Shown here: positions 8,371 to 38,305 of the stretch, piece after piece
How positions within the stretch are numbered: the first letter of the stretch is position 1
How the letters are laid out: each line of letters starts with the position of its first letter
NCBI GenBank assembly: GCA_036804025.1
Contig: DAIRTE010000001.1
Span: 2,542 to 66,541 of the forward strand
Reading direction: 5' to 3'
DNA from: Clostridia bacterium
GTDB taxonomy: Bacteria > Bacillota > Clostridia > Christensenellales > CAG-138
DNA length: 64,000 nt
Notes under the pieces: generated by a model
What the model saw: the letters and a program-made list of their open reading frames with translations, nothing else
Told to the model about the DNA's origin: nothing
Database searches by the model: none
Position numbers and translations under genes: made by a program

Positions 8371-8411
8371 GATGTTGTAGACGAAGAAGATTTCGATTAA
8401 GTTAAAGTTTG

Positions 8412-9353: not shown

Positions 9354-9608
9354 GAACCCTCCTGATCGATCGATCTTACCATTGAACTATTGTGGATGAT
9401 TTCTGATTATATCATAGAAGCCCCAAAACGAGATCGCTTTGGGGCGTCGGATGGGTGAATTTGCCTCGGATGTTCTTTCTTCGGGTTGTTGCAGAACTCG
9501 CGTGTTTGCTTTCTATCCAATTCTCGTGCACGATTCCGCGAAACGTTGAAGCGTAGATTTCGACTGGGCAAAATCAAACGGACGATGGTATCATTTTTAT
9601 TATGCGCG

Positions 9609-10058: not shown

Positions 10059-10303
10059 AATGGCATTTCCTCGAAAGACGGTTTATTTGTTCTAATAGAG
10101 AATTGTGCGAAATGATTACGGCTGTAATTATATGCCGATCCTGTTTTCTGTCAAGGCTAGCGGCAATTTGCCATCCAAAACCGGCGAGATATCTGCCAAA
10201 GTTGCATCATATTTGTGTGAAGAGAAAGGAACTATGGATCGGATGTATGGGATGTTATATTAAATATAAGTGCATGCGCGAAATAAAAACGGAGGTGGGT
10301 TTT

Positions 10304-11563: not shown

Positions 11564-11584
11564 GAACCAAACGATCCATGATCT

Positions 11585-11621
11585 CGCCAGTACAGCCGCA
11601 AGTTCTGTGGCTGTACTGGCG
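11585..11621 (+). promoter_or_regulatory. intercistronic RNA stem-loop between EIIC and EIIB
   Basis: Perfect 13-bp inverted repeat cgccagtacagcc / ggctgtactggcg with an 11-nt loop. No U-tract follows. Confidence 0.5.
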
Positions 11622-11638
11622 AATAGAAAGGTGAACAT

Positions 11639-11926
11639 ATGGACAAAAAGAGAATCATCGTTGCTTGCGGCACTGGCGGTGTAACGTCAAAAAACGTGGC
11701 GATGAAGATTGAGAAGTTTCTCAAAGAGAAGAACGTGGACTGCTTTATTGATACGTGCAAAGTGGTTGAAGTACGCGAAAAGGCGAAGCTTCTCAAGCCG
11801 GATCTGGTCGTATCCCCCACGCAATTGCCGGAAGTTGGAGTGCCGAAAGTGGTTGCAACCGCGCTGCTGACGGGCGTTGGGGCGGATAAAGTTTACAACG
11901 AAATATACGACATCCTCATGAAATGA
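11639..11926 (+). CDS. PTS EIIB component (galactitol/lactose-type PTS_IIB)
   Basis: 95 aa. MDKKRIIVACGTGGVTS carries the phospho-Cys at residue 10, as in GatB. Confidence 0.9.
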   Translation: MDKKRIIVACGTGGVTSKNVAMKIEKFLKEKNVDCFIDTCKVVEVREKAKLLKPDLVVSPTQLPEVGVPKVVATALLTGVGADKVYNEIYDILMK

Positions 11927-11945
11927 GGGAGGTAGGAGAAGAAGC

Positions 11946-12977: not shown

Positions 12978-13840
12978 CGGACAGAATTACAGATACCATT
13001 CGAAGAGCCCAGGCGAACGGGCGCGTGGCTTTCATCGGACTGGTGCCGATTGAACCGGACAGCATGGCGCATTCGCTTCGAATTGCCGACGCGATGGTTC
13101 AATCGGGCGTCGACATTCTGATGGCGCACATCCCAAACTGGATTCCCTGGATGGAGGGCAAGGCGCTTCAGCGAGCGGCGCAGGAACCAAGAAACGCCGG
13201 TATTTCGCGAGAGCAGATTTTCGATTTTATTAAGGCGCTGCGTAACCAACATCCGCAAGTGCCGATTATCAACATGACGCTCTACGACACGGCGCTTACC
13301 ATGGGCCAGGATACGTTTTTCCGGCTCTCGGAGGAAGCGGATGTAGATGGTTTCGATATCCCGAACTATCCGCTGGTCAGTACCGAAGATAAATTCGGCT
13401 TTTATGAACAGTGCCTCAAGCAAGGCAGACACCTGATTCTCGCCATTTCTTATGAGATTGCTACGGCAAAGGAGGGTACACAGGAGTATCAAATGCTCCT
13501 TGAGATGGCTAAGAGAGCGAGAGGCTTTGCGTTTATCATGAACGCGCCGGGCGGAAAGTCCGGGTCGGATGTGAAGCTGTCGAATGAGGAACTGCGTTCC
13601 GCCGTGCAGCGCGTAAAATCGGTGATGAAGGCACAGGGGAATGACTGCTATACCTCTATTGTGTGCGGGATTTCCGGAAAAGAAGACTTAATAAAAGTGA
13701 AGCATTCCGGGGCGGAGAGCTTCATGATCGGCAGCGCATATATTCAAATGCTGCAGGACGGAAAATCACTGGAAGAGGTTTCAAGCTATCTGCAAGGAAT
13801 CCGAAACATGTGCAATCTTGACTGCGAGGTGTCCGGATGA
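12974..13840 (+). CDS. tryptophan synthase alpha (TrpA)-like TIM-barrel protein, paralogue 1 (catalytic Glu/Asp positions substituted)
   Basis: Full-length collinearity with TrpA (AFIGLVP.., DILMAHIPNWIPWMEGK, VPIINMTLY, VDGFDIPNYP, VCGIS, IGSAYI). ATGA overlap with the TrpB-like gene. Confidence 0.75.
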   Translation: MTDRITDTIRRAQANGRVAFIGLVPIEPDSMAHSLRIADAMVQSGVDILMAHIPNWIPWMEGKALQRAAQEPRNAGISREQIFDFIKALRNQHPQVPIINMTLYDTALTMGQDTFFRLSEEADVDGFDIPNYPLVSTEDKFGFYEQCLKQGRHLILAISYEIATAKEGTQEYQMLLEMAKRARGFAFIMNAPGGKSGSDVKLSNEELRSAVQRVKSVMKAQGNDCYTSIVCGISGKEDLIKVKHSGAESFMIGSAYIQMLQDGKSLEEVSSYLQGIRNMCNLDCEVSG

Positions 13841-14682
13841 ACGCGGTTGAGCAAAAATTTCTGGACTATGAGGCGAAGAACAAAGGCGCCATCATCGTAG
13901 AAATCCCGCTTCTAGCGCCCATTCCGCAGACGCAGCTGGACGTAGCGGAGGTTCTGGTAAAAGCCGGAGTCGACGTGATTCAGGTGCCGATTCCGGTGCG
14001 ATTTCCCTGGATGTACGGCGCGCGGATACAGACCATCCAGAAGATGGCGGCGCAGAACGATGTTTGCTATCGCCAGTCATTCCAGGTGCTTTCCATGTTG
14101 ATCGAGAAGTACAAGCAAACCGAGTTCATGCCGGTTGGATTCTACGGCGGACTGCAGCGCATGGGTCAGGAAAACTACGTGGAGCAATGCGCCCGATTGG
14201 GAATCAAGATGGTGGACGTGCCGGATTACCCGATTGTTCATGACGATGACCCGCAAGGACTGTTGAAAGCGCTTCAGGGCAAAGGCATATCGTTTGTTAC
14301 GGTCATCAGTACAGAGATGGCACTGGAACCGGAAGGAAGCCGCGGGTATCAACAGCTGGAGCGGTTGATCGCAGTATCGAGCGGATTCTGCTTTTTGCTG
14401 GCCGCGGCCGGTGGAAAAACCGGAGAAAAGAAAGCCTTTGATTATGGCACGCTGGCCAAAGCGAAGGCAAGGATACTAGAAGTTCAGAGTAAGGTGAATA
14501 GACGCTGCCCCATCGTCGCTGTTTGCGGCATATCGGAACCGGAGCAGGTTCGAATACTGGTGAAGGACATTGGCCTGCACGTCATGTTTGGCAGCGCGCT
14601 CTTCACCCGCATGATGCGGGGCGACAGCAGCGAAGAAATCTATCGATTCCTATTGGAAATGAAACAGGCTGCAAGCGAATAA
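13837..14682 (+). CDS. tryptophan synthase alpha (TrpA)-like TIM-barrel protein, paralogue 2 (catalytic Glu/Asp positions substituted)
   Basis: 281 aa. DVIQVPIPVRFPWMYGA, MVDVPDYP, AVCGIS and FGSALF are collinear with TrpA and with paralogue 1. ATGA overlap with paralogue 1. Confidence 0.75.
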   Translation: MNAVEQKFLDYEAKNKGAIIVEIPLLAPIPQTQLDVAEVLVKAGVDVIQVPIPVRFPWMYGARIQTIQKMAAQNDVCYRQSFQVLSMLIEKYKQTEFMPVGFYGGLQRMGQENYVEQCARLGIKMVDVPDYPIVHDDDPQGLLKALQGKGISFVTVISTEMALEPEGSRGYQQLERLIAVSSGFCFLLAAAGGKTGEKKAFDYGTLAKAKARILEVQSKVNRRCPIVAVCGISEPEQVRILVKDIGLHVMFGSALFTRMMRGDSSEEIYRFLLEMKQAASE

Positions 14683-14703
14683 TGCAAGTAAAAGGGAAAC
14701 AAC

Positions 14704-15180
14704 ATGGCTGGAGAGATTAAGATACTGGAATCGTGCATCGATTTAAACCTTGCCGCAGACACCAAGGAAGGCGTTATTACGAGCCTTGCCGGTAGGCTTG
14801 CGGAACAGGGCTTTGTTGATTCGAAATATGTTGATAAGGTTGTGCAGCGGGAGCAGGAGTATCCGACGGGGTTGATTTTCCCTGGAATTCAGATTGCTTT
14901 GCCGCACGGCAGCTCGGAACATGTGAAGACGTCTGCAATAGCGGTAGGACGATGTGTGAAGAAACCGGAATTTGCAAACATGGAAGACTTTTCACAAAAA
15001 ATCAAAGTGGATATGGTTGTTGTACTTGCGATAAAGGACCCGGACAGACACCTGATCATTCTAAATAATCTGATTGAGCTGTTCACCTCGAATGAAAACT
15101 GTAAGGTTCTTTTGGGATGCGACTCGAGCGCAGAAGTCTGCCGACTGTTTCGAAATTGCCTTTATCAGATGAACGAATAG
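14704..15180 (+). CDS. PTS EIIA component (PTS_EIIA_2, GatA/mannitol-fructose type)
   Basis: 158 aa. REQEYPTG and IALPHG (phospho-His) match GatA REAEFPTG and IAIPHC. Confidence 0.9.
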   Translation: MAGEIKILESCIDLNLAADTKEGVITSLAGRLAEQGFVDSKYVDKVVQREQEYPTGLIFPGIQIALPHGSSEHVKTSAIAVGRCVKKPEFANMEDFSQKIKVDMVVVLAIKDPDRHLIILNNLIELFTSNENCKVLLGCDSSAEVCRLFRNCLYQMNE

Positions 15181-15193
15181 AAGGAGAGAACAA

Positions 15194-15976
15194 ATGGCTG
15201 TGAATAGAATGGAACGAATACTCGGGGAAATGAAGCAGGCGGGCGAAAAGATATTGGTCGCCTATTATCCGCTATGCGATCCCCTGTTGGACGACCCGGT
15301 TGCATGGGCGGGCAAGTACTTTGAAAATGGTGCAACCGTTCTGGAGATGGGACTGCCATATGAGAATCCTTGCTTGGACGGAAAAATCGTTCGGGAATCG
15401 ATGGAACGCGCGCTGACGAAGCATACGGTTGACGATGCGTTCGACGTGATTGCGGAGCTTCGCCAAGCATATCCCAACAATATTCTGCAGGTGATGACCT
15501 ATTTCGAGATTATTGATAAAATGGGGATAGAGAATTTCGCAAAACGCTGCGCGGAGTGCGGCGCGGACGGCGTACTGACCCCCAACATCCCCCAATCTCG
15601 CGTAGCGGAGCTGGATCGGGCGCTTGGAGCTTATCATCTGCTGCAACTGCGCTTTGCCCCCTTCCATTTGAGCGGGGATGCCATAAACGACCTGAAGGCG
15701 AATGCCAAGGGGTATATCTTCCTGCAGGCGGTTGACGGCGCAACCGGGCCGCAGGAGAAGACCTCGCCGCAGGTTGGCGAAAATGTAAAAACGCTGAAGC
15801 AAAGCGGCATAGGCACCCCGGTCGTCGCCGGATTTGGCATTTCCAATGCGCAGCACGTACGAGAAATGAAGGCGATGGGCGCGGACGGCGTGATTGTTGG
15901 AAGCAAAATTATTTCGGAAATTCAGAACGGAAATGGCGAGGAGTTCATTCGACAGCTAAGGAGCGCATTGCAGTAA
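15194..15976 (+). CDS. tryptophan synthase alpha (TrpA)-like TIM-barrel protein, paralogue 3 (catalytic Glu/Asp retained)
   Basis: 260 aa. VLEMGLPYENPCLDGK matches TrpA ALELGxPFSDPLADGP. Also GADGVLTPNIP, GFGISNAQHV and VIVGSKII. RBS gaaggag. Confidence 0.8.
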   Translation: MAVNRMERILGEMKQAGEKILVAYYPLCDPLLDDPVAWAGKYFENGATVLEMGLPYENPCLDGKIVRESMERALTKHTVDDAFDVIAELRQAYPNNILQVMTYFEIIDKMGIENFAKRCAECGADGVLTPNIPQSRVAELDRALGAYHLLQLRFAPFHLSGDAINDLKANAKGYIFLQAVDGATGPQEKTSPQVGENVKTLKQSGIGTPVVAGFGISNAQHVREMKAMGADGVIVGSKIISEIQNGNGEEFIRQLRSALQ

Positions 15977-26714: not shown

Positions 26715-29672
26715 ATGCGGTTCACGCGAAAAATACCCCGGAATGGTTCCGGCAAAGTCAAGGAGTACACAAGGTTGAATGAACTGGAGTTTGTAACAAG
26801 CGGATACGCCGATGAAACGCTCTCGCGCGACGAAACACTGTTTCATTGCGCAAATGGCTATCTCGGCGTGAGGGGCTGCCTGGAAGAAGGCGCAAAAGGC
26901 GGCGTGCTCACCGTCCGCGGGGCATATATCAACGGGTTTTGCGAAGAAGAAGAAATCAACTATGGCGAGCGGCTATACGGCTTTCCCGAAAGCAAGCAGG
27001 TAATCGTTAACCTGCCGGACGCGCAGAGCGTGCATCTCTGGGCGGGCGGCGTGAAAGCCGCCGCGTGGAGCGACGCCGCAGAGGGGATGACCAGACGGTT
27101 GGACCTTCGGGCGGGGGTTGCTAAACGCGACTACCAATTTCATACCACGCGCGGATCGCTCCGGCTCTCGGTGACGCGCATGGCAAGCTTTGCGCTCAAA
27201 GAGCTGTTTGTGCTGCGCTTTTGCGTGACCTCTATGGATTATTCCGGGGAGATTCGGCTGGACTCGCTGCTCAACGGCGACGTAACGAACTTTAGCGACC
27301 CGGACGACCCGCGCGTCGCCTCGGAGACCAAGCCAAAGCTCGTAATCACCCGTCGGCGGCTCGAGGGCGGTTGCATTGCGTTGCAAGCGGAGACGCTGGC
27401 GAGCAAACGCTCGCTTGGGTGTGCGGTGCTGCACGAGATGGAGGGCAGCGCGCCGGAGCTCTATGGGCAGGGAAACCTGCTCGCCGCGCGGTTTCAGCGC
27501 GACATCCATCCGGGAGAAACGGTTACACTGATCAAGTATTGCGTCTATGCGGAAGCGCCGGAGGGGAAAGACCCCGTCGACGCGGCGATTTCGCTGGTGG
27601 AACACGCGCGCGAGAAGGGATATGAACATTGGGCGAAGCTCCAGCGGTCGTATCTGGAGGATTTCTGGCACAAATCCCGCGTGCGGATACAGGGCGATGA
27701 CCGCACACAGGCGTATCTGGATCTATGCGTCTACGAGCTGCTCTGCGCGGCGGGACAGAACGGGCGCAGCAGCGTGGCGGCCAAGGGACTCAGCGGCGAA
27801 GGATATGAGGGGCATTACTTCTGGGATTGCGAAACCTATGCATTTCCGTTCTTTCTCATGAGTGCGCCCGAAATGGCGAAAAAGCTGCTGGATTACCGAT
27901 ATGAACATCTCGATGCGGCGCGCCGGAACGCGCGGATGCTTGGGCACGAACGCGGCGCGCTCTATCCCTGGCGTACGATTACGGGGTCCGAGTGCTCTTC
28001 GTATTATCCCTCCGGCTCGGCGCAGTATCACATCAACGCGGATATTGCGCATGCGTTTATTCAGTATTGGTACGCAACGAAGGATATCGGCTATCTGCCG
28101 CGCATCTGCGAGGTGCTGGTTGAGACCGCGCGGCTGTATCTGGACGTTGGACATATGCGAGACGGGGAGTTTCGCATTGACGGTGTGACCGGGCCGGACG
28201 AATACACCTGCATCGTAGACAACAACTATTATACGAACGCGGGCGCGGCCAAAACGTTTCTGGAAGCGGATGCGCTTTGCCGCTTGCTGGATCAAAACGG
28301 CGGACTGGACGCGCTCCGCACGAAAATTGGCGTAACCGCGGAAGAGCTGGCGGCGTTTTCTGCCGCCGGAAACGCCATGTATCTGCCAATGGACGAGCGG
28401 CTGGGCATCTGCAAGCAGGACGACAGCTTTCTTAATAAGAAACGATGGGAATTGAGCGAAATTCCGCCGGAACATTTTCCGCTGCTGATGCACTATCACC
28501 CGCTCTATATCAATCGTAGACAGGTTTGCAAGCAGGCGGATACCGTGCTGGCGCATTTTCTCTACCGCGAGGAGAGCACGCTGATCATGCGCCGCAGCTA
28601 TGCGTACTATGAGCAGGTGACCACGCATGACTCCAGCCTTTCGGCGTGCGTGTTTTCCATGATGGCGGCGCGGCTGGGCGATCTCGCGAGCGCCAAACGC
28701 TATTTTGAGATGACCGTCGGCATCGATATTGAAGACCAGAGCGGCAACACGCGGGACGGTCTCCACATCGCCAACATGGGCGGCGCTTACCTCTCCATGA
28801 TTGCCGGATTTGGCGGAATGCGGTTGGACAACGCCGGGTTGCGCCTGTTTCCGCTCTTGCCGGACGGCTGGGCGGGCTATTCGTTTTTGCTGGCATTCCG
28901 TGGCAGCCGGATATCCGTTTCGGTCAACGCGGAGGGCTGCGCCGTTCGCATGCTGGAAGGCGAAAATCAGGAAGTGCTGGTCTACGACAAAAGCATTTGC
29001 GTCGAAAAGACGGAAACGCAAATCAACCGTCCCATACGCGCAGTCATATTTGATCTGGACGGGGTTGTGACGGACACCGCGCGCTATCACTACGCGGCAT
29101 GGAAGCGGATTGCCGACGAGCTGGAGATTCCGTTTGATCAAACAGGCAACGAGCGCTTTAAGGGCGTTTCCCGTGCGGAATGCATGCATCTGCTGCTGGA
29201 AATGGGCGGACGTACCATGCCGCAGGAGCAGATGGCAATCTGGCTAAACAAGAAGAATCTATACTATCTGGAAGAGCTGTCTTCGTTGTCCCCCGAGGAT
29301 ATTTTGCCGGGCGTTGCGGAAACCCTGACGGATCTAAAAGAACGAAACATTCCCTGCGCGCTGTTTTCGGTCAGCAAAAATACAAAGTTCATTCTGGAGC
29401 GAATCGGGTTGCAGGATGCGTTTGGCGCAGTCGTCGACGGAAATGACATCACGCACTCGAAGCCGCATTTTGAGGGCTACCTGCTGGCGGCCGAGCGACT
29501 GGGCGTCGATCCGCGGCTTTGCCTGATGATTGAGGATGCGGAAATGGGGCTTGCCGGCGCAAAAGCGCTCTCCATGCGGACGATTGGAATCGGCACAAAG
29601 TACGCGGCGGACTACAATCTGGCCGATACGCAGAGACTGCCGGAATGGATTGGGCGGATAACATCCAAATAG
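26715..29672 (+). CDS. GH65 glycoside (disaccharide) phosphorylase fused to a C-terminal beta-phosphoglucomutase (HAD) domain
   Basis: 985 aa. GH65 N-terminal pattern (ETLFHCANGYLGVRG) and a catalytic-domain region (GEGYEGHYFWDCETY). The C-terminal ~215 aa are beta-PGM-like (AVIFDLDGVVTDTARYHY...). An alternative TTG start lies at 26775. Confidence 0.85.
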   Translation: MRFTRKIPRNGSGKVKEYTRLNELEFVTSGYADETLSRDETLFHCANGYLGVRGCLEEGAKGGVLTVRGAYINGFCEEEEINYGERLYGFPESKQVIVNLPDAQSVHLWAGGVKAAAWSDAAEGMTRRLDLRAGVAKRDYQFHTTRGSLRLSVTRMASFALKELFVLRFCVTSMDYSGEIRLDSLLNGDVTNFSDPDDPRVASETKPKLVITRRRLEGGCIALQAETLASKRSLGCAVLHEMEGSAPELYGQGNLLAARFQRDIHPGETVTLIKYCVYAEAPEGKDPVDAAISLVEHAREKGYEHWAKLQRSYLEDFWHKSRVRIQGDDRTQAYLDLCVYELLCAAGQNGRSSVAAKGLSGEGYEGHYFWDCETYAFPFFLMSAPEMAKKLLDYRYEHLDAARRNARMLGHERGALYPWRTITGSECSSYYPSGSAQYHINADIAHAFIQYWYATKDIGYLPRICEVLVETARLYLDVGHMRDGEFRIDGVTGPDEYTCIVDNNYYTNAGAAKTFLEADALCRLLDQNGGLDALRTKIGVTAEELAAFSAAGNAMYLPMDERLGICKQDDSFLNKKRWELSEIPPEHFPLLMHYHPLYINRRQVCKQADTVLAHFLYREESTLIMRRSYAYYEQVTTHDSSLSACVFSMMAARLGDLASAKRYFEMTVGIDIEDQSGNTRDGLHIANMGGAYLSMIAGFGGMRLDNAGLRLFPLLPDGWAGYSFLLAFRGSRISVSVNAEGCAVRMLEGENQEVLVYDKSICVEKTETQINRPIRAVIFDLDGVVTDTARYHYAAWKRIADELEIPFDQTGNERFKGVSRAECMHLLLEMGGRTMPQEQMAIWLNKKNLYYLEELSSLSPEDILPGVAETLTDLKERNIPCALFSVSKNTKFILERIGLQDAFGAVVDGNDITHSKPHFEGYLLAAERLGVDPRLCLMIEDAEMGLAGAKALSMRTIGIGTKYAADYNLADTQRLPEWIGRITSK

Positions 29673-29766
29673 GATTAGCGGCAGATCGGGCGAAAAGGAA
29701 CGCTTGCGGCCGAGATCAATCGAAGCGTTTTTGGATCATCTGTGAAGGAATAAAGCGAATGCAACG

Positions 29767-29791
29767 AAAGCCCTATGAGAGGGCTTTTTTT
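29767..29791 (+). terminator. rho-independent terminator after the GH65 gene
   Basis: 8-bp stem aaagccct/agggcttt with a 5-nt loop, then a T-run to 29791. Confidence 0.75.
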
Positions 29792-30065
29792 GTATTGGTT
29801 CTTGTTTTCCGTGTTCTGCAAAAATAGCATGCTGAAAAGGGAACACCGCCGACATGAAATTTATAACGTCGCAACGGGGTAATTTGTGTGCAAATTATGT
29901 GGCAAGAGCAGCTAAAATGGGCAGAAAACGCGAAAAAAGCAGGAAGAAAGAGGAGAATTTTTCTTACATGCACATTAATTGATGACATTTGTTTGATACG
30001 ATGGTTGTGGTCAAATCAGAGAACGCACTTCCGAACCGACTTACAACTGAAAAGAGGGCAGTGAA

Positions 30066-30563
30066 ATGAACAACGCACAATCGCATTGTACTTGCTGTCA
30101 ATTGGACGGCGCGGGACCTTTCGCCGAACTCGATCTCATCATCGATCTCTATCGAGACAAAGAGGGGAATCTCATTCAGATTCTGCACATCGCACAGGAA
30201 CTCTACGGTTTTTTATCGCTCGAATTACAACAGCATATTGCACAAGCACTGCAAAAACCGCTCTCCGAGGTTTCGGGTGTGGTTACGTTCTACTCGTTCT
30301 TCTCCACAAAACCGCGCGGCGAGCATACCATTCGCGTGTGCCTCGGCACGGCCTGCTATGTGCGCGGCGGAAAAAAGATTGTCGATGCGCTGCAGAAGAC
30401 GCTGAATGTGGACATCGGGGAAACGACCGCGGACGGAAAGTTCACCTTCGAGGTTGCGCGTTGTATTGGCGCCTGCGGACTAGCGCCGGCAATGATGATT
30501 GACGACGTCGTCTACAAACAGGTGAACATCAACAAACTCAACGCGATTCTTTCGCGTTATTGA
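30066..30563 (+). CDS. NuoE/HydC-like [2Fe-2S] thioredoxin-fold subunit
   Basis: 165 aa. CLGTACYVRG...CIGACGLAP cysteine pattern typical of NuoE/HydC/HndA. Confidence 0.88.
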   Translation: MNNAQSHCTCCQLDGAGPFAELDLIIDLYRDKEGNLIQILHIAQELYGFLSLELQQHIAQALQKPLSEVSGVVTFYSFFSTKPRGEHTIRVCLGTACYVRGGKKIVDALQKTLNVDIGETTADGKFTFEVARCIGACGLAPAMMIDDVVYKQVNINKLNAILSRY

Positions 30564-30567
30564 GGGG

Positions 30568-33500
30568 GTGAAGAATTTGAGCGAGACCATGGTGAAAACG
30601 ATTCAGGATCTGGAGCAGATTAAACAGGCGTATCTCGACGAGACCGCGAAGAGCCGCTACCAGATTCTTGTTTGCAGCGGCGCGGGTTGCGTCTCCTCCA
30701 ACTGCGCGGAGGTTCGCGACGCCGTGCGCGACGAACTGAGCCGCATTGGCATGAGCGAGCAGGTCATCGTCCGCGAGACGGGCTGCATTGGCACCTGCGC
30801 GGTGGGGCCGGTCATGCTGGTTCTGCCGGAGCGCATCTTCTACACGAAACTGACCCCGCAGATTGCGCGCACAATCGTGCAAAAGCACATTGGCCACGGC
30901 GAGATTGCGGAAGCGTATACCTTCTACGACGAGTCGCTGAAGAAGCGGATTCCGAAGATCGACGACATCGACTTCTTCAAAGAACAGGTGCGCATTGCGC
31001 TGCGCAACTGCGGCGTGATTGAATACAACAGCCTGGATGCCTACATCAGCCGGGACGGGTACCTCGCCGCGGCAAAGGCGCTCAACGAACGCTCGGCGCA
31101 AGAGGTAATCGACGAGGTCAAGCGCAGCGGAATGCGCGGCCGCGGCGGCGCGGGCTTCCCAACCGGCGTGAAATGGCAGGCGGGGCACGACGCGCCGGGC
31201 GGACAGAAGTACATCGTCTGCAACGCGGACGAGGGCGACCCGGGCGCGTTTATGGATCGCAGCATTCTGGAAGGCGACCCGCACACGGTCATCGAGGGCA
31301 TGCTGATTGGCGCCTATGCCATCGGCGCGAGCAAGGGCTATGTCTACGTACGCGCGGAGTATCCGCTGGCCATTGAGCGGCTGGAAAAAGCGCTGGAGGA
31401 AGCGCGCTCTCGCGGCGTTCTGGGGCAGAACGTGTTCAATAGCGGGTTCGATTTTGATCTGGAGATTCGCATTGGCGCGGGCGCGTTTGTCTGCGGCGAA
31501 GAGACGGCGCTGATGGCGTCCATCGAGGGCTGCCGCGGCGAGCCGAGGCAAAAGCCGCCGTTCCCGTTCCAGAGCGGACTGTTTCAAAAGCCGACGATCA
31601 TCAATAACGTGGAAACCTACGCGAGCATTCCCGAAATTCTACTCAAGGGCGGGGAATGGTACTCCGGCTTCGGAACCGAGAAGAGCAAGGGCACGAAGGT
31701 GTTTGCGCTCGCCGGGGACGTGGTGAACACCGGCATCATCGAGGTGCCGATTGGAAAACCGCTTGGGGACATTCTCTTTAACATTGGCGGCGGGCTGCGG
31801 GATCGAAAGAAGTTCAAGGCGGCGCAGATTGGCGGGCCTTCCGGCGGCTGTGTTACGCGGGACAACCTGAACACCCCTACGGACTATGAGTCCCTGCAGT
31901 CGCTCGGCGCGATTATGGGCTCCGGCGGACTGATCGCGATGAACGAGGACGCTTGCATGGTGGATACGGCGCGCTTCTTCATGGACTTCATTCGCGACGA
32001 GTCCTGCGGAAAGTGCGCGGCCTGCCGCATCGGCACCACGCGCATGCTCGAGATATTGGAGCGCATTACGCGCGGTGAGGGCGAGAAAGGCGACATCGAG
32101 CTGCTGGAAGAACTCGGCGAAACGATTAAGGACACCGCCATGTGCGGCCTTGGTCAAACCGCGCCGAACCCGGTGCTCTCGACCATTCGCTACTTCCGCG
32201 AGGAATACGAGGAGCACATTCGCGACAAATACTGCCGCTCCAGCGTCTGCTCGCCGCTGTTCATCTCCCCCTGCGAGAACACCTGCCCGGCAAACATCAA
32301 CGTGCCGGGGTATATGAGCCTGGTGGCGGCGGGGCGGTTCATCGACGCGTATAACCTGATTCGGCAGGAGAACCCCTTCCCGGCGGTCTGCGGGCGCATC
32401 TGCACGCACCCCTGCGAAACCAAGTGCCGCCGCCGCACGCTGGACGAAGCGGTTTCCATCTGCGAAATCAAGCGCTTTGTCGCGGACTATGCCTATAAAC
32501 ACGAGGAACCATTCAACGCGGAACTCGTGTTCCCGAAGAACGGGAAAAAGGTCGCCATCGTCGGCGCGGGTACTTCCGGCCTGACCTGCGGGTATTATCT
32601 CGTGAAGATTGGCTACGAGGTGGACGTGTACGAGTCCGAGGCGGTTGCGGGCGGCGTTCTTGCGTTCGGCATACCGGAATACCGGCTGCCCAAGAAGGTG
32701 CTTCAGCACGAGATCGACCTGATTGCGCAGGCGGGCGTGAACATTCACCTGAACACGCAGGTGGGCAAGGATATTACCTTCAAAGCGCTGCAGGCGCAGT
32801 ACGACGCGGTCTACATTGCAACCGGCACGCAGTTTCCGGAGAAGGTCAACATCTCCGGCGAGGGGTTGACCGGCGTGATTCACGGCATTGACTTCCTCAA
32901 AAACGTGAACCTCCAGCGCGAGATGTCGCTGGGTGCCACGGTCGCGATTATCGGCGGCGGCAACACCGCAATCGACTCCGCGCGCACGGCACTGCGCCTG
33001 GGCGCGGACCGCGTGATGATTCTCTACCGGCGGACGCGGGACGCGATGCCCGCGAGCGTGGAGGAGGTGCAGGCGGCGCTGGACGAAGGGGTTGAGCTAC
33101 ATGAGCTCGTTGCTCCGGTTCGGTTCCTCGCAAACCGCGCGGGCAAGGTCTGCAAGATTGAGTGCCAGACCATGAAGCTAGGGGAATTCGACAAGAACGG
33201 CCGCCGCAGGGCGGTTCCCATTGAGGATTCCAACTATACCATCGAGGTGGACGCGGTGATTCCGGCCGTGAGCCAGTATTCCGACCTGCCGTTCATCAAA
33301 AAGAGCGAGATTGGCGTAACCAGCTGGGGTACGTTCGTGGTGGACTACGATACCATGATGACGACCATGCCGGGCGTGTTTGCCGGCGGCGACGTCGTCC
33401 GCGGGCCGGACACCGTGATTCAGGCAATTGCGGACGGCAAGAACGCGGCGGTCTCGATTGACAAATATCTGGGCGGAAAAGGAAAGCTGAACAAAGGCGC

Positions 33501-33678
33501 GCCAATTGAGATTCCCGACCAGTTCAGCGACGATGAGATTGTCGAGCACAAGCGCTTTGAGATAGAAGAGCTCGACATCGAAAAGCGCAAGACCTCGTTT
33601 GACGAAGTCGTGCTGGGTTACCACAAACTCAGGGCGATGGCCGAGGCGATGCGCTGCCTGCACTGCGACAGGAGGTAG
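30568..33678 (+). CDS. NuoF/HydB-like flavoprotein fused to a GltD/NfnB-like NADPH-dependent FAD/Fe-S oxidoreductase module
   Basis: 1036 aa. N-terminal Trx-like 2Fe-2S (CSGAGC...CIGTC). NuoF core (GRGGAGFPTGVKW, CNADEGDPGAFMDR, CGKCAACRIG). From ~32230 a GltD-like part (CPANINVPGY, CGRICTHPCETKC, VAIVGAGTSGL, VAIIGGGNTAIDSAR). The start (GTG 30568, TTG 30577 or ATG 30589) is uncertain. Confidence 0.85.
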   Translation: MKNLSETMVKTIQDLEQIKQAYLDETAKSRYQILVCSGAGCVSSNCAEVRDAVRDELSRIGMSEQVIVRETGCIGTCAVGPVMLVLPERIFYTKLTPQIARTIVQKHIGHGEIAEAYTFYDESLKKRIPKIDDIDFFKEQVRIALRNCGVIEYNSLDAYISRDGYLAAAKALNERSAQEVIDEVKRSGMRGRGGAGFPTGVKWQAGHDAPGGQKYIVCNADEGDPGAFMDRSILEGDPHTVIEGMLIGAYAIGASKGYVYVRAEYPLAIERLEKALEEARSRGVLGQNVFNSGFDFDLEIRIGAGAFVCGEETALMASIEGCRGEPRQKPPFPFQSGLFQKPTIINNVETYASIPEILLKGGEWYSGFGTEKSKGTKVFALAGDVVNTGIIEVPIGKPLGDILFNIGGGLRDRKKFKAAQIGGPSGGCVTRDNLNTPTDYESLQSLGAIMGSGGLIAMNEDACMVDTARFFMDFIRDESCGKCAACRIGTTRMLEILERITRGEGEKGDIELLEELGETIKDTAMCGLGQTAPNPVLSTIRYFREEYEEHIRDKYCRSSVCSPLFISPCENTCPANINVPGYMSLVAAGRFIDAYNLIRQENPFPAVCGRICTHPCETKCRRRTLDEAVSICEIKRFVADYAYKHEEPFNAELVFPKNGKKVAIVGAGTSGLTCGYYLVKIGYEVDVYESEAVAGGVLAFGIPEYRLPKKVLQHEIDLIAQAGVNIHLNTQVGKDITFKALQAQYDAVYIATGTQFPEKVNISGEGLTGVIHGIDFLKNVNLQREMSLGATVAIIGGGNTAIDSARTALRLGADRVMILYRRTRDAMPASVEEVQAALDEGVELHELVAPVRFLANRAGKVCKIECQTMKLGEFDKNGRRRAVPIEDSNYTIEVDAVIPAVSQYSDLPFIKKSEIGVTSWGTFVVDYDTMMTTMPGVFAGGDVVRGPDTVIQAIADGKNAAVSIDKYLGGKGKLNKGAPIEIPDQFSDDEIVEHKRFEIEELDIEKRKTSFDEVVLGYHKLRAMAEAMRCLHCDRR

Positions 33679-33687
33679 GTGACCAGC

Positions 33688-35700
33688 ATGAAGCATATTA
33701 CGATCAACGGCAAGCCATATGAGGTGGAGGACGGCCTCACCATCATTGAGGCGGCGAAGCAAAACGGCATACAGATTCCGAGCCTTTGCTATCTTGCGGG
33801 CGTGCACGAATTCGGCTCCTGCCGAATCTGCGTGGTCGAGGTGGAAGGGGCCAAGACGCTGGTGCCTTCCTGCATGACCAAGGTGTCCGAGGGAATGGTG
33901 ATTCAAACGAATTCGGAGCGCGTGCGCCGCGCGCGCAAGGTGCTCTACGAGCTGCTGCTCTCCGACCACTCCAAGGACTGCCTGAGCTGCAAGCGAAACC
34001 AGAGCTGCGAGTTGCAGGCGCTGGGCAAGCAGCTCGGCGTGGAGGCAACCCGCTTTGAGGGCGCGCGGAGCGAATGCGTCATTGACGTTTCCACCTCCAT
34101 TACGCGGGACATGTCCAAGTGCATTCTCTGCCGCCGCTGCGTGACCGCCTGCAATGAGATTCAGGGTGTCGGCATCATCAACGCGCAGAATCGCGGTTTC
34201 CAAACCGTCATCAGTCCCGCCATGGAGCTCGCCATCGGTTCGGTCAACTGCGCGTTCTGCGGGCAGTGCACGGTCGTTTGCCCGGTTGGCGCGCTCAAGG
34301 AGACGGACTCGATTCAGGCCGTTTGGGAAGCGATCAACGACAAGAACAAGCGCGTGATCGTCCAGACCGCGCCCGCCATCCGCGTGGCGATTGGCGAGGA
34401 GTTTGGCAACGAGCCGGGCGCGCGCGTCACCGGAAAACTGGCCGCGGCGCTGCGGCGGTTGGGCTTTGACGATGTGTTTGACACAAACTTCACCGCCGAC
34501 CTGACCATTCTGGAGGAGGGGACGGAGCTGCTCTCCCGCGTGAAGAGCGCGTTGACCGGCGGCGAGGCGGTACTCCCGATGATTACGAGCTGCAGTCCGG
34601 GCTGGATTAAGTATGTGGAACACACCTATCCGGACGAACTGGATCATCTCTCCACCTGCAAATCGCCGCATACCATGCTCGGCGCGCTCGCGAAGAGCTA
34701 CTACGCGGGCAAGATCAAGCGCGAGCCGAAGGATCTCTTCGTGGTTTCCATTATGCCCTGCACGGCGAAGAAGAGCGAAATCATCCGCCCGGAGATGCAA
34801 AACGACGGACTGGCAAACGTGGACGCGGTGCTGACCACGCGCGAACTGGCAAACATGATCCGCGAGATGGGCATTGACTTCAACAACCTGCCGGACGAGG
34901 AATTCGACAACCCCTTGGGCATGTCCACGGGCGCGGCGGATATCTTCGGGTTGACCGGCGGCGTTATGGAGGCGGCTCTGCGCACCGTCTACGAGCTGGT
35001 TACGGGGCGCGAGCTGCCGTTTGAAGGGCTGCACGTAACGCCCATCGTCGGGCTCGATCAGGTCAAGGAAGCCGCGCTGACCATTACGGACACGCTGCCG
35101 GACTATCGCTTCCTCGAAGGCGTTACGGTGCGCATTGCGGTCACCAGCGGGCTTGCGGGCGCGAACAAGCTCATGGAGCAGATTGCCAACGGCACCTCGC
35201 CCTACCACTTTATCGAGGTGATGGGTTGCCCGGGCGGCTGCATCATGGGCGGCGGTCAGCCGCGGTCGGACGACCCGGACGTGCGCAGCAAGCGCCTGCG
35301 AGGGTTGTATACGGAGGACGAGGAAAAGGTGCTCCGTAAGTCGCACGAAAACCCGTTTGTGGTGCAGCTCTACGCGGAGTATCTGGAGCACCCCAACGGC
35401 CACAAGGCGCACGAGCTGCTGCATACGCACTATGTGCGCCGCGGCAAGTACAACGAATACACGAAGGAGCGGTTTGACCTGGGCGTCCGTCCGGCGGAGA
35501 AGAAGCGGGACACTGCCGCACAGGCGATCAACGCCGCCGCGAAGGCGGAGGCCGCGAAATCGCGCGAGGAGATGGAGTCCGTTCGCGTGCTGGCGCTGGA
35601 GGCGGAGAACCAACGCCTCAAGGCGGAACTGGCGGATGTGAACGAGACGGTCGGCTTCTTTAAGAGCGTGATTGCGGATTACGCGAGCCGGGGAAAATAA
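33688..35700 (+). CDS. hydA: [FeFe]-hydrogenase catalytic subunit (M3-type N-terminus, variant L1 motif, C-terminal coiled-coil extension)
   Basis: N-terminal 2Fe-2S, His-ligated 4Fe-4S (HSKDCLSCKRNQSC) and two ferredoxin-type 4Fe-4S clusters. H-cluster motifs are L1 TSCSPGW (34585-34605), L2 MPCTAKKSE (34753-34779) and L3 EVMGCPGGCIMGGGQP (35215-35262). ATG 33688 follows aggagg; the ORF is open from 33679. Confidence 0.9.
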   Translation: MKHITINGKPYEVEDGLTIIEAAKQNGIQIPSLCYLAGVHEFGSCRICVVEVEGAKTLVPSCMTKVSEGMVIQTNSERVRRARKVLYELLLSDHSKDCLSCKRNQSCELQALGKQLGVEATRFEGARSECVIDVSTSITRDMSKCILCRRCVTACNEIQGVGIINAQNRGFQTVISPAMELAIGSVNCAFCGQCTVVCPVGALKETDSIQAVWEAINDKNKRVIVQTAPAIRVAIGEEFGNEPGARVTGKLAAALRRLGFDDVFDTNFTADLTILEEGTELLSRVKSALTGGEAVLPMITSCSPGWIKYVEHTYPDELDHLSTCKSPHTMLGALAKSYYAGKIKREPKDLFVVSIMPCTAKKSEIIRPEMQNDGLANVDAVLTTRELANMIREMGIDFNNLPDEEFDNPLGMSTGAADIFGLTGGVMEAALRTVYELVTGRELPFEGLHVTPIVGLDQVKEAALTITDTLPDYRFLEGVTVRIAVTSGLAGANKLMEQIANGTSPYHFIEVMGCPGGCIMGGGQPRSDDPDVRSKRLRGLYTEDEEKVLRKSHENPFVVQLYAEYLEHPNGHKAHELLHTHYVRRGKYNEYTKERFDLGVRPAEKKRDTAAQAINAAAKAEAAKSREEMESVRVLALEAENQRLKAELADVNETVGFFKSVIADYASRGK

Positions 35701-35730
35701 AACCCCACGCGGCAAAGATGCCAAAGTAAG

Positions 35731-35767
35731 CATCGCGGGAGCTGCAATTGTACCAGCTCCCGCGATG
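35731..35767 (+). terminator. strong hairpin after hydA (putative terminator, weak U-tract)
   Basis: Perfect 14-bp stem catcgcgggagctg / cagctcccgcgatg with a 9-nt loop. Only ttat follows. Confidence 0.45.
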
Positions 35768-35905
35768 TTATGTCCGGCCGTCGGGCGCTTGCATCGGGTC
35801 TCGATTGCGCGGAATAAACACAAAACCAGAAAGTGTCTTGAAACGCCGGACAAAGCCGGATAGAATGATACTAGGCGCGCTGTTTCAACCATCGGAGGAT
35901 ACCAC

Positions 35906-36586
35906 ATGAAATCGGATATCCGGCTGTTGATTGTCGATTCCAGTAGCACGATACGTGCGGAAATCCGCCAGCTCGCCGTTTCGCAGGGGTACTCCTTTGA
36001 CGAGGCGGCGGATGGCATTGCCGCGCTCAAACTCTTCCGCCGCAACGACTATCACCTGATTCTGCTGGATACCGACCTGCCGGAGCTGGACGGCGGAAAC
36101 GTCTGCCGCCAGATGCGTAAGGTGTCCGACGTGCCAATTCTGTTTCTCAGCACCAGAACGGCGGAGCAGGACCGGCTCTGCGCGTTTGAAATTGGCGCGG
36201 ACGACTTTATCATCAAACCGTTCTATCCGCGCGAGCTGCTGGCGCGCATCAAGGTGTTTCTCTACCGAACGGGCAGCCAGACCAAGTGCGTTGCCGACAA
36301 GATTGCGTTCAACGGGCTGTTCATCAACACCGTTTCGCGCGAGGTCACGGTGGACGACCGTCCCGTGTCGCTCACGCCGAAGGAATATGACCTGCTGTTC
36401 TTTCTTTCGCAGAATCCGAACAAAGCCTATTCGCGCGAGTCGCTGCTCAACGAGGTTTGGGGGTACTGCTTTACGGGCTCGGACCGCACAATCGACACGC
36501 ACATCCGCTCGCTGCGGGACAATATCCGTCCGTATGACGGCTATATCGTAACGGTTTGGGGATTTGGCTATAAGTTCGTTCTTTGA
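35906..36586 (+). CDS. OmpR/PhoB-family response regulator (no cognate kinase adjacent)
   Basis: 226 aa. Receiver domain (LILLDTDLPELDG, KPF) plus a winged-helix trans_reg_C domain (LTPKEYDLLFFLSQNPNKAYSRESLL...VWGFGYKF). RBS ggagga. Confidence 0.9.
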   Translation: MKSDIRLLIVDSSSTIRAEIRQLAVSQGYSFDEAADGIAALKLFRRNDYHLILLDTDLPELDGGNVCRQMRKVSDVPILFLSTRTAEQDRLCAFEIGADDFIIKPFYPRELLARIKVFLYRTGSQTKCVADKIAFNGLFINTVSREVTVDDRPVSLTPKEYDLLFFLSQNPNKAYSRESLLNEVWGYCFTGSDRTIDTHIRSLRDNIRPYDGYIVTVWGFGYKFVL

Positions 36587-36598
36587 GTGAATTGACGA

Positions 36599-36628
36599 GA
36601 GTCTATCGGAAGATAGGCTCTTGTTTTT
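36599..36628 (+). terminator. rho-independent terminator after the response regulator
   Basis: 9-bp stem gagtctatc/gataggctc (one G-U pair) with a GGAA loop, then ttgttttt. Confidence 0.75.
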
Positions 36629-36793
36629 GGGCGAAACCCGAATAAGATGGCAAAATCGCGCGAATCGTATGTCGGGTGTAAACTACGAGCAAATTGGGGA
36701 ACCGATCACATTCTCCAAAGTCGGTTTGCTTTTTTCAGACGGAACATATTATAATATGAAAAATTCTATTTTAGCGGCTCGAAAGGAACCCAA

Positions 36794-38305
36794 ATGGCAC
36801 ACTATTTTGATGAACCGTCCCATACTTTTTCGGAATATCTGCTTGTACCGAGTTACTCCTCCGCTCTATGCGCGCCGCAGAGCGTTTCGTTAAAGACGCC
36901 GGTGTGCAAGTTCCGCGCGGGCGAGACCAGTTCACTCAACATGAGTATCCCCCTTGTTTCGGCGGTTATGCAGTCCGTTTCCGGCGAAAAACTCTCCACG
37001 GCGCTCGCGCGCGAGGGCGGTATCTCCTTTGTATTTGTTTCGCAGCCCATCGAATCCCAGGCGGCGATGGTGCGGAACGTAAAAAAATCAAAATCGGGTT
37101 TTGTCCGCAGTGACAGTAACGTAACTCCACAGAACACCATGGCGGACGTAATGGCACTGAAGGCGGAAACAGGACATTCAACCATCGCCGTCACCGAAGA
37201 CGGAACGCCGACGGGAAAGCTCCTCGGCATCGTGACAAGCCGTGATTACCGCCCGAGCCGCATGGACCCCGCCACACCGGTCAAAGACTTCATGACCCCC
37301 ATTGAGCGGCTGATTACCGGCACAGAAGGCATCACCCTAACCGAGGCGAACGACATCATCTGGGAGCATAAACTGAACGCGCTTCCGATTATCACAAAGG
37401 AAGGCAATATATCATCCTTTGTGTTTCGCAAGGATTATGACTCCCATAAAGAAAATCCCGGCGAACTGCTGGACCAGCAAAAGCGCTACGTCGTCGGGGC
37501 GGGCATCAATACGCGGGATTATGAGGAGCGCGTTCCGGCGCTGGTGGAGGCCGGCGCAGATATTCTCTGCATCGATTCTTCGGAAGGATTCACGGAGTGG
37601 CAGGCGCGCACCATCGCGTTCATCCGCTCCCGCTATGGAGACAGCGTAAAAGTTGGCGCAGGCAACGTGGTGGATGGAGATGGATTCCGCTTTCTGGCGG
37701 ATGCGGGCGCGGACTTCGTCAAGGTGGGCATCGGTGGAGGATCCATCTGTATCACCCGCGAGGCAAAGGGCATTGGCCGCGGGCAGGCGACCGCCGTTCG
37801 CGACGTCGCCGCAGCGCGGGACGCCTATTTAAAAGAGACGGGATTTTATGTTCCCATCTGTTCGGACGGGGGCATCGTTCTGGATTATCACATCACGCTC
37901 GCGCTTGCCATGGGCGCGGATTTCTGCATGCTCGGACGGTACTTTGCACGGTGTGACGAGAGCCCGACGAGCAAGGTGCTCATCAACGGCAGCTATATGA
38001 AGGAATATTGGGGCGAGGGTAGCGCGCGCGCGCGCAACTGGCAGCGCTATGACAGCGGCGGCGAGGCAAAACTCACCTTCGAAGAAGGCGTGGACAGTTA
38101 TGTTCCTTACGCAGGCAGCCTGCATCACAACGTGGAGCAGACGCTGAGCAAAGTGCGCTCGACGATGTGCAACTGCGGCGCGTTGACCATACCGGAACTG
38201 CGCGAGAAGGCACGGCTCACGCTCGTCTCCGCCGCAACGCTCGCCGAAGGCGGCGCGCATGACGTTCTGCTCAAAGACAGAGGCTATTTCCGTTCGCTCG
38301 AATGA
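36794..38305 (+). CDS. guaB: IMP dehydrogenase
   Basis: 503 aa. N-terminus collinear with GuaB ([12 protein letters not shown]..., [28 protein letters not shown]). CBS insert present. Catalytic Cys loop [24 protein letters not shown]. Confidence 0.85.

Follow-up and report, generated by a model that had tools for sequence, protein, structure and literature searches.

Anaerobes keep NADH, ferredoxin and H2 in balance mainly through enzymes of the HydABC/Bfu type, and the origin of the low-potential electron at the flavin mononucleotide (FMN) of these enzymes is debated. What would such an enzyme do if the part through which this electron leaves for ferredoxin were exchanged for another redox module? 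The question is raised by a locus in a stretch of 64,000 nucleotides (nt) from a Clostridia bacterium of the Christensenellales (GenBank assembly GCA_036804025.1, contig DAIRTE010000001.1, positions 2,542 to 66,541 of the forward strand), which as a whole we call the window. At 30066-35700 of its + strand, three closely packed genes encode HydC, a fusion of HydB with a GltD module, and the [FeFe]-hydrogenase subunit HydA; all coordinates given here are positions within the 64,000-nt stretch. A preliminary description of this DNA had read the locus as a HydABC-type operon in which the NuoF-like subunit is joined to a GltD/NfnB-like unit for NADPH and flavin adenine dinucleotide (FAD), and had proposed an NADPH-linked or multi-substrate bifurcating enzyme. 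The analysis reported here shows that bacterial HydB-GltD hydrogenases are widespread and have gone unremarked in databases, and that they follow the known Bfu/HydABC plan with a new placement of the GltD module.

Results

The operon and the HydB half of the fusion protein

The three genes, all of them + strand open reading frames (ORFs) as first described, are as follows.

30066-30563 (+): hydC, 165 amino acids (aa), a NuoE-like [2Fe-2S] subunit with a thioredoxin fold (PF01257, E = 4e-50)
30568-33678 (+): hydB::gltD fusion gene, ~1029-1036 aa depending on the choice of start, with a TAG stop at 33676-33678
33679-35700 (+): hydA ORF with its probable start at ATG 33688, the M3-type [FeFe]-hydrogenase catalytic subunit

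A GTG at 30568 gives the fusion protein its full 1036 aa, with TTG 30577 and ATG 30589 as alternatives. The sequence AGGAGG at 33670-33675, inside the end of the fusion gene, stands 12 nt before the ATG of hydA. In HydC the four cysteines for the [2Fe-2S] cluster C1 (Cys92, 97, 133 and 137) are all present. The fusion protein itself is divided into the following parts.

30637-30885 (+): N-terminal thioredoxin-like [2Fe-2S] domain (B5), PF01257 over residues 24-106, with ligands C36, C41, C73 and C77
31117-32217 (+): NuoF core, comprising the FMN/NAD(H) site, the SLBB domain and the B1 [4Fe-4S] cluster
32215-32250 (+): zinc (B2) hinge, H550, C556 and C561 together with C463, aligned to 8oh5_B, 7q4v_B, 9bov_B and 8a6t_B
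32251-32502 (+): iron-sulfur domain of the GltD module (Fer4_20, aa 562-645), with C569, C573, C608, C612, C616, C620 and K635, sitting in the place of B3/B4
32545-33438 (+): FAD and NADP(H) Rossmann domains of the GltD module (Pyr_redox_2, aa 660-957, E = 2e-26)
33550-33675 (+): C-terminal helix and RCLHC motif, in which C1030 and C1033 are the last two cysteines of the distal [4Fe-4S] cluster

Pfam and NCBIfam models place Complex1_51K at residues 184-355, followed by SLBB and NADH_4Fe-4S (466-550), in agreement with the NuoF-GltD reading that had been proposed for this gene; among family models, TIGR01959 (nuoF_fam) scored 483 bits and PRK12771 512 bits. All four motifs quoted in the preliminary description were found where it had put them: in the NuoF half the FMN/NAD(H) motif GRGGAGFPTGVKW at aa 191-203 (GRGGAGFPTG; 31138-31176) and the B1 motif CGKCAACRIG at aa 480-489 (32005-32034), and in the GltD half the FAD motif VAIVGAGTSGL at aa 662-672 (32551-32583) and a second nucleotide motif, VAIIGGGNTAIDSAR, at aa 792-806 (GGGNTAIDSAR; 32941-32985). 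The ligands of B1 are C480, C483, C486 and C526.

Residues 28-565 matched HydB of Acetobacterium woodii (7q4v_B) with 716 bits, and the match ended at residue 542 of the 599 in 7q4v_B. Bifurcating beta subunits have been characterized by a signature of A/E232, M234, F367 and GGPSG in the numbering of Thermotoga maritima (PMC7311640), and the corresponding bifurcating-type residues are found in the fusion protein at GDPGAFMDR (aa 223), GAGAFVCGEE (aa 303) and GGPSG (aa 422). The hinge residues H550 and C556 were present in 57 of 57 aligned sequences; a histidine at the hinge is conserved in virtually all Bfu-family B subunits (PMC12018979). The cysteines of B5 were kept in 49-52 of the 57 and were invariant inside the hydrogenase-linked clade. 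As judged from these residues, no element of a bifurcating-type FMN centre up to the zinc hinge is missing from HydC and the HydB core.

The junction and the loss of the B3/B4 domain

In residue-level alignments the homology to HydB holds through YFREEYEEHIRDKYCRSSVC, which is the zinc (B2) hinge and the last element shared with canonical HydB, and then stops. The junction lies at aa 561/562 (nt 32250/32251), and C569, with which the cluster ligands of the GltD module begin, comes only 7 residues past the hinge. The boundary of ~32230 that had been given for the GltD half is thus refined, and the half itself is present as claimed. Pfam found no ferredoxin-type Fer4 domain in the fusion protein, and the protein holds no CxxCxxCxxxCP motif. 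A Ruminiclostridium relative without the fusion (L053; 61% identity over the NuoF part) carries at the same place a B3/B4 domain with two CxxCxxCxxxCP motifs, 13 residues past the hinge, which bears out the claim that a GltD-like half stands in place of the usual 2x[4Fe-4S] domain.

In the enzymes studied so far the low-potential branch runs from FMN through C1, on the mobile domain of HydC, to B3/B4 and from there to ferredoxin (PMC12018979, PMC10482914, PMC10021017). Since B3/B4 ends this branch in the published structures and mutants, the part that was replaced is the ferredoxin exit. By alignment, then, the ferredoxin-like 2x[4Fe-4S] B3/B4 domain is exactly swapped for a GltD module. An AlphaFold2 model of the fusion protein, built from an alignment of 56 sequences that were each at least 72% identical, had a mean predicted local distance difference test score (pLDDT) of 65.7 and a predicted template modelling score (pTM) of 0.46, with the junction and the tail below a pLDDT of 50. 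This model was too poor to be used and was left out of geometry and fold searches.

The GltD module is of the permuted, lysine-ligated type

Residues 566-1034 matched the A-type subunits of Stn and NfnABC complexes (9bov_A, 9n5u_A and 8oh5_C) and also NfnB (4ylf_B and 5jca_L), with scores of 410 bits (E = 1e-121) for 9bov_A, 389 for 9n5u_A and 352 for 4ylf_B. The final 40 residues, FDEVVLGYHKLRAMAEAMRCLHCDRR, correspond in the alignments to N-terminal residues of NfnB (4ylf_B 4-43), and in 9bov_A and 8oh5_C it is the GltD module's end with which they line up; the module of the fusion protein is therefore circularly permuted relative to NfnB and GltD. The fusion protein terminates at a natural domain boundary, with the final two cluster cysteines supplied.

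Eight cysteines of the module (C569, C573, C608, C612, C616, C620, C1030 and C1033) were essentially invariant, C1030 and C1033 being found in 56 of 57 sequences, and K635, at the position of the non-cysteine ligand of the FAD-proximal [4Fe-4S] cluster, was found in 53 of 57. The FAD motif GxGxxG and the motifs GGGNTAxDxAR and YRRT were conserved across the same 57 sequences. In the window protein the NADPH-type LYRRT lies at 33022-33036; YRRT is common to StnC, the 9bov_A homologue and NfnB of T. maritima and Pyrococcus furiosus, and those that have been studied use NADPH. The two nucleotide sites that had been predicted, one in NuoF and one in GltD, are thus both intact by their motifs, and conserved. 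In StnC the equivalent lysine (K170) coincides with a flavin that has lost bifurcation, the FAD serving simply as a port for NADPH (PMC10482914). The conserved residues and the topology mark the module as one of the permuted, Lys-ligated kind found in StnC and in NfnA of NfnABC, predicted to be a non-bifurcating NADPH input. A bifurcating flavin of the NfnB type was considered and was rejected on the grounds of the lysine ligand and the permuted topology. Of the label GltD/NfnB-like, the GltD-type FAD and NADPH parts were retained by our analysis, and the likeness to NfnB was not borne out in detail.

The HydA subunit

HydA has the M3 domain order, with Fer2_4, NADH-G_4Fe-4S_3 (a His-ligated [4Fe-4S] cluster), a 2x[4Fe-4S] dicluster, Fe_hyd_lg_C and Fe_hyd_SSU. 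It scored 880 bits against NF040763 ('NADH-dependent [FeFe] hydrogenase, group A6'), for which the cut-off is 765, and its best solved match was HydA1 of A. woodii (7q4v_A; 639 bits over residues 4-586). The H-cluster motifs are L1 TSCSPGW (34585-34605), L2 MPCTAKKSE (34753-34779) and L3 EVMGCPGGCIMGGGQP (35215-35262). They were kept in 51 of 51 HydA sequences of the clade, with canonical L2 and L3 and with TSCSPGW as L1 in every one. This L1 has a serine in place of its second cysteine, as does HydA1 of A. woodii, in which the serine replaces a cysteine ligand of the [4Fe-4S] subcluster of the H-cluster and apparently leaves both the infrared signature of the H-cluster and the activity unchanged. 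By its motifs and domains, HydA is predicted to be a complete and competent catalytic subunit of the A. woodii type.

An additional cysteine was observed about 20 residues past the L1 serine, in the motif LS[ST]CKSP, in all 51 HydAs of the clade (L002-L062; in the window 34585-34668, residues 303-330). A. woodii HydA1 combines TSCSPGW with SSCKSP, and HydA of Thermoanaerobacter kivui and CpI combine TSCCP with S[ST]A[KR]SP; the additional cysteine apparently co-varies with the L1 serine, and it is not mentioned in the A. woodii paper that describes the serine.

HydA also ends in an extension:

35443-35697 (+): C-terminal extension of HydA, ~85 aa (residues 589-673), a low-complexity linker followed by an amphipathic, leucine-zipper-like helix

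The helix, at 35581-35682 (VRVLALEAENQRLKAELADVNETVGFFKSVIADY), is strongly conserved (consensus VRVLALEAEN.RLK.EL.D..ET..FFK.VI.DY). The extension was found in most of the approximately 40 complete HydA ORFs from fused loci, being missing in three (L032, L034 and L045), and is absent from an unfused Ruminiclostridium relative (L054) and from the HydAs of A. woodii and T. kivui. Searches of the PDB and Pfam gave no significant match to it, only chance-level matches to leucine zippers and nucleoporin repeats. The tail may dock the GltD module or drive oligomerization.

Conservation and carriers of the fused operon

More than 120 protein clusters (at 90% identity) contained full-length relatives of about 1033 aa that were 72-92% identical to the fusion protein. 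Scanning a single genome for each GTDB species yielded 63 related loci, and carriers were found among the Christensenellales, the Oscillospiraceae (Sporobacter, Papillibacter), 'Limiplasma', the Acetivibrionales and the Lachnospiraceae (Mobilitalea). Most of them are metagenome-assembled genomes (MAGs); Mobilitalea sibirica and Oscillospiraceae bacterium WX1/CM are among the carriers in culture. In 54 of 54 loci where the DNA continued past the fusion gene (64-100% identity), hydA lay within 6-179 nt 3' of a single intact fused ORF, and hydC was directly upstream of the fusion in 52 of 52. The same gene order was seen beside a representative that is 62% identical (P0121), and a MAG labelled 'uncultured Christensenella sp.' (L001) carries the same operon with a fusion protein that is 100% identical over 1036 residues. 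Database annotation of the fusion protein is only generic, either 'NADH-quinone oxidoreductase subunit F' or 'FAD-dependent oxidoreductase'. The MAG OH_CDB_252 holds two copies of the fused operon (L028 and L048) on different contigs, each about 75% identical to that of the window.

A frameshift or misassembly joining hydB and gltD, which had been named as the finding that would undo the fusion, is refuted by the 54 intact loci from different species, assemblies and projects, closed chromosomes included, and we give it practically no credence. The more than 120 clusters of about 1033 aa and the position of the junction at a precise domain boundary count against it as well.

A wider family of NuoF-GltD fusions

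A search of 1.8 billion cluster representatives returned about 12 further clusters (at 50% identity) of full-length NuoF-GltD fusions, 35-45% identical to that of the window. None of the seven distant fusions that were inspected had HydA beside it. The co-occurrence of the fusion with HydA, for which a survey had been suggested, is therefore a property of the close clade (54 of 54) that does not extend to these distant relatives (0 of 7). A single origin of all NuoF-GltD fusions was considered and rejected, each half of the window protein being closer to unfused proteins (50-55% for the NuoF part, 50-53% for the GltD part) than to the matching halves of the distant fusions (27-44% and 35-47%). 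The fusion that is linked to a hydrogenase therefore seems to have arisen independently. Of the closest unfused relatives of the GltD part, P0164 and P0170, one is found within an unrelated operon; the other is only a fragment.

Four distant fusions (L065, L069, L073 and L074) are solitary, with no partner genes nearby, a hint that the NuoF-GltD architecture serves in general to carry electrons from one of its flavin sites to the other. The solitary proteins are candidate soluble NADH:NADP+ oxidoreductases. Other arrangements were also noted. One fusion (L064, 927-5697) is accompanied by NuoE and a 403-aa NuoG-like protein without a catalytic domain, and another (L075, 3199-9393) lies beside a molybdopterin oxidoreductase. 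In a third (L070; JGI 3300045116, 5239-15156; 35% identity), two tandem pairs of NuoE and NuoF-GltD are followed by a small [2Fe-2S]/Fer4 protein and then by a gene with a Glu_synthase domain (GltB-like), which could form a NuoEF-driven glutamate synthase.

Boundaries of the operon and its neighbourhood

The features around the three genes are the following.

29766-29788 (+): intrinsic terminator of the upstream GH65-HAD gene, from a terminator scan and the sequence; 5' boundary of the hydrogenase unit
35725-35765 (+): GC-rich hairpin 3' of hydA, read from the sequence, without a clear T-run
35906-36586 (+): gene for an OmpR-type response regulator (Pfam Response_reg and Trans_reg_C), with no adjacent kinase

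Between the upstream terminator and hydC there is a non-coding leader of about 275 nt, and a search of 29000-37000, covering leader and operon, gave no match to any Rfam family. The hairpin after hydA was not called by the terminator scan; it is probably the 3' end of the transcript. With a terminator upstream and a hairpin after hydA, the three genes therefore form a discrete unit. The response regulator gene has a promoter-like site of its own at 35838-35866, and in 26 loci with otherwise different flanks an orthologue of it lies after hydA. When the flanks of the 63 related loci were compared by clustering, no other conserved flanking gene and no conserved NfnA-like neighbour was found. The response regulator is a possible regulator of the hydrogenase operon.

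The Pfam scan of the window covered about 32 ORFs, some ORFs of at least 150 aa being left out. Among those scanned there was no hydE, hydF or hydG, no nfnAB, rnf, pyruvate:ferredoxin oxidoreductase (PFOR) or canonical hydABC gene, and no member of the glutamate synthase large-subunit family. Nor did any of the scanned ORFs that flank the operon (~23-41 kb) match the FAD_binding_6/NAD_binding_1 type that is characteristic of NfnA-like proteins; the sole protein of that type in the window is an unrelated ORF of 452 aa at 2523-3881 (-), about 26 kb upstream.

The surroundings of the operon consist of sugar transport and glycoside hydrolase genes. Directly before it, and downstream of a sugar ATP-binding cassette (ABC) transporter, the gene at 26715-29672 (+) encodes a 985-aa protein in which an entire GH65 glycoside phosphorylase, with its N-terminal, catalytic and C-terminal domains, is followed by a C-terminal HAD hydrolase domain. 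The HAD part may be a beta-phosphoglucomutase, which would make the protein a phosphorylase-mutase fusion. At 12959-15976 (+), three paralogous TrpA-like genes (PF00290; 293, 281 and 260 aa) lie within a phosphotransferase system (PTS) cluster with EIIC-GAT, EIIA, a PRD-type regulator and Enzyme I. No TrpB gene is close by, and the three TrpA-like proteins are unlikely to be subunits of tryptophan synthase. Two ORFs of about 650 aa overlap on opposite strands at 6294-8246 (+) and 6339-8297 (-), the former without a Pfam match at E <= 1e-5.

Discussion

Relation to known enzymes and to current classifications

HydABC of A. woodii (7Q4V/7Q4W; Katsyv et al. 2023, PMC10021017; HydDB group A3) is the best solved match for both HydA and the HydB core, and shares with the window enzyme the three subunits, FMN, B1, the N-terminal [2Fe-2S] domain, the zinc hinge and TSCSPGW. 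However, HydB of A. woodii ends in a B3/B4 domain with a lysine-rich loop for ferredoxin docking, where the window protein has a GltD module of about 470 aa. A. woodii HydA lacks the extension of about 85 aa, and the A. woodii enzyme has an additional subunit, HydD, that was not seen here.

A HydBC-like core and a GltD module are also combined in the Stn/Nfn-Bfu enzymes (StnABC of Sporomusa ovata, 8OH5; NfnABC of Caldicellulosiruptor saccharolyticus and Thermococcus sibiricus; 9BOV and 9N5U), and the two modules are alike in being permuted, with a CxxC after the Rossmann domains, in the lysine (K170 in StnC, K635 here) and in YRRT. In those enzymes, however, the module is inserted in a NuoG-like BfuA that has no H-cluster, where it serves as a mid-potential input, and BfuB keeps B3/B4, whereas in the window enzyme a true hydrogenase serves as BfuA, and it is BfuB that bears the module, at the position of the missing B3/B4. 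The first cysteine of AVCGRIC is present in the window fusion as it is in NfnB, and is missing in Stn. With NfnB (4YLF, 5JCA) and GltD (2VDC, 6S6S) the window module shares the fold, the two [4Fe-4S] clusters, the FAD and the NADPH site (352 and 337 bits); NfnB differs from it in being unpermuted, in its glutamate cluster ligand, in its bifurcating FAD and in needing an NfnA (PyrK-like) partner.

Beta subunits without B3/B4 are known from the non-bifurcating HydABC of the Syntrophomonas wolfei type. However, those subunits lack B2-B5 and carry T/S232, K/S/A234 and Y367 and no GGPSG, whereas the window protein has the bifurcating pattern. In archaeal hybrid [FeFe]/[NiFe] complexes of group F, HydB carries a 'glutamate synthase (GltA) domain', which was taken to be a low-potential acceptor site (Greening et al. 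2024, PMC11216029). These complexes differ in having five genes and both types of hydrogenase, and are known from models only. They were also the subject of the sole related remark that we found in the open-access literature, to which our search was confined; we found there neither biochemical nor structural work on any bacterial HydABC whose HydB is fused to GltD.

The preliminary description had linked the locus to the functionally uncharacterized 'glutamate-synthase-linked' group A2 of HydDB, and like that group it does have a group A HydA beside a protein with a GltD domain. The link proves to be a matter of classification rules. For A2, HydDB asks for a neighbour with a GltA/GltD domain but without a NuoF domain, and at the window locus NuoE, NuoF and GltD occur together; by that rule the operon is set apart from A2. 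In the pipeline of a 2026 gut survey, on the other hand, PRK12771 and PRK12814 are tested first, and the operon would therefore be binned as A2. The published definition of Bfu calls for a ferredoxin-type domain in BfuB (IPR017896; 2x CX2CX2CX3CP), and the survey behind it left out metagenomic sequences. Of the features used to assign Bfu/A3 enzymes, the window operon has the H-cluster motifs of HydA, BfuC, the BfuB core and the signature residues, but not the B3/B4 domain.

A low-potential arm that may end in NADP(H)

Our preferred hypothesis, to which we assign a probability of roughly 45%, is that the low-potential arm of this enzyme would end in NADP(H), giving H2 <-> NAD(H) + NADP(H), with ferredoxin replaced or optional. 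According to this hypothesis the tether of 7 residues would put the iron-sulfur clusters of the GltD module at the B3/B4 position, at the end of the gated low-potential arm, where they would receive or deliver the electron that is gated by the mobile C1 of HydC, and the non-bifurcating Stn-type FAD would exchange hydride with NADP(H). H2 at the H-cluster, NAD(H) at FMN and NADP(H) at FAD would thereby be coupled, with the net reaction 2 H2 + NAD+ + NADP+ <-> NADH + NADPH + 2 H+, and ferredoxin would be a dispensable or secondary partner. In fermenting hosts the enzyme would mainly produce H2, and NADPH oxidation would help to drive that of NADH, which is the harder of the two. Taking cellular potentials to be about -280 mV for NADH and -380 mV for NADPH (PMC9304861), we calculated from the mean of -330 mV and E = -414 - 29.6 log pH2 mV at pH 7 that H2 evolution would be allowed up to ~1.4e-3 atm (~100-150 Pa), a range that suits organisms growing alongside H2 consumers.

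The hypothesis should be interpreted with some caution, as several points weigh against it. Electron flow towards NAD+ and NADP+ from H2 is downhill on both arms, and a bifurcating core is not obviously needed for it; the strict bifurcating signature may be a sign that ferredoxin or some other low-potential partner remains in use. For the archaeal HydB fusions, ferredoxin was in fact proposed to act at the glutamate-synthase-like domain (Greening et al. 2024, PMC11216029). Moreover, the nucleotide specificity of both sites is read from motifs alone, and we infer the placement of the GltD module relative to C1 and the clusters of HydA from linker length only.

In a different explanation, ferredoxin would dock on the two [4Fe-4S] clusters of the GltD module and the FAD/NADP(H) site would be an extra, fourth port. 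Such a hybrid of hydrogenase and Nfn could form H2 from NADH and reduced ferredoxin, make NADPH from reduced ferredoxin and NADH, and reduce NADP+ with H2. The conserved bifurcating signature and the mobile-gate subunit are easiest to explain by a truly low-potential partner; in NfnSL, electrons reach ferredoxin through the two [4Fe-4S] clusters of NfnB, which is homologous to the module and bears the ferredoxin-binding site; in NfnABC of T. sibiricus, ferredoxin wedges between the C-terminal domain of the HydC-like subunit and the B3/B4 domain; and the archaeal proposal concerns an equivalent domain (PMC11216029). The hosts, furthermore, are sugar fermenters, which as a rule make reduced ferredoxin from the oxidation of pyruvate. 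Against this stands that the clusters of Stn-type modules talk to another protein domain, not to ferredoxin, and that an ungated FAD by a ferredoxin site would short-circuit low-potential electrons into NADP+. On balance we consider a ferredoxin port on the module less likely than the preferred hypothesis, but the strongest of its rivals. A third explanation dispenses with coupling altogether: the loss of B3/B4 would have abolished coupling to ferredoxin, as in Hyd1ABC of S. wolfei, and NADH at FMN and NADPH at FAD would each exchange electrons with the H-cluster independently. The domain that defines the ferredoxin arm is indeed absent, the non-bifurcating homologues of HydB are likewise without it, and solitary NuoF-GltD fusions without a NuoE partner exist. 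However, non-bifurcating beta subunits differ at the four diagnostic positions and are without B2-B5, whereas the fusion protein has the bifurcating residues, B5 and the hinge, and always HydC. An ungated path between NADH and NADPH would also amount to a free transhydrogenase and, from established physiology, would collapse the disequilibrium between the two pools. An uncoupled enzyme with two cofactors is thus improbable.

Finally, the GltD module might be a sensor or regulator, or might feed a partner encoded elsewhere, such as the large subunit of glutamate synthase. Group A2 was named 'glutamate synthase-linked' after neighbours of this kind, and the distant fusion with tandem pairs (L070) adjoins a gene with a Glu_synthase domain. 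On the other hand, the strict conservation of the eight cluster cysteines, of K635 and of the FAD and NADPH motifs is what would be expected of an electron-transfer module; no Glu_synthase family was found among the scanned ORFs of the window, and only the response regulator is conserved in the flanks of the related loci. We therefore regard a sensory role or an outside partner as very unlikely. An NADPH-linked or multi-substrate bifurcating function, as proposed in the preliminary description, would be consistent with all of the findings. In broader terms, we tentatively suggest that the rewired low-potential arm leads to FAD and NADP(H), allowing a ferredoxin-independent confurcation of NADH and NADPH to H2 or a split of H2 between NAD+ and NADP+, and that, if ferredoxin docks after all, hydrogenase and Nfn would be joined in one complex; we hold this with less than even confidence.

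Implications

The fused operons are a widespread natural variant that offers a direct test of what the low-potential arm requires. If the arm is indeed rewired, nature would have performed an experiment on how the low-potential branch of Bfu enzymes works, and the result might supply a function for some [FeFe]-hydrogenases now listed as 'group A2' in surveys of the gut. There is also a gap in classification, insofar that the definition of Bfu excludes the architecture found in the window and the rules for A2 and A3 assign it inconsistently. The compact three-gene scaffold may further be of use in engineering H2-driven regeneration of NADPH.

Christensenellales are known for living alongside methanogens. 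For these and other Clostridia of guts and digesters, the enzyme may be one by which H2 is connected with the NADPH pool of anabolism, and it would bear on models of their redox metabolism.

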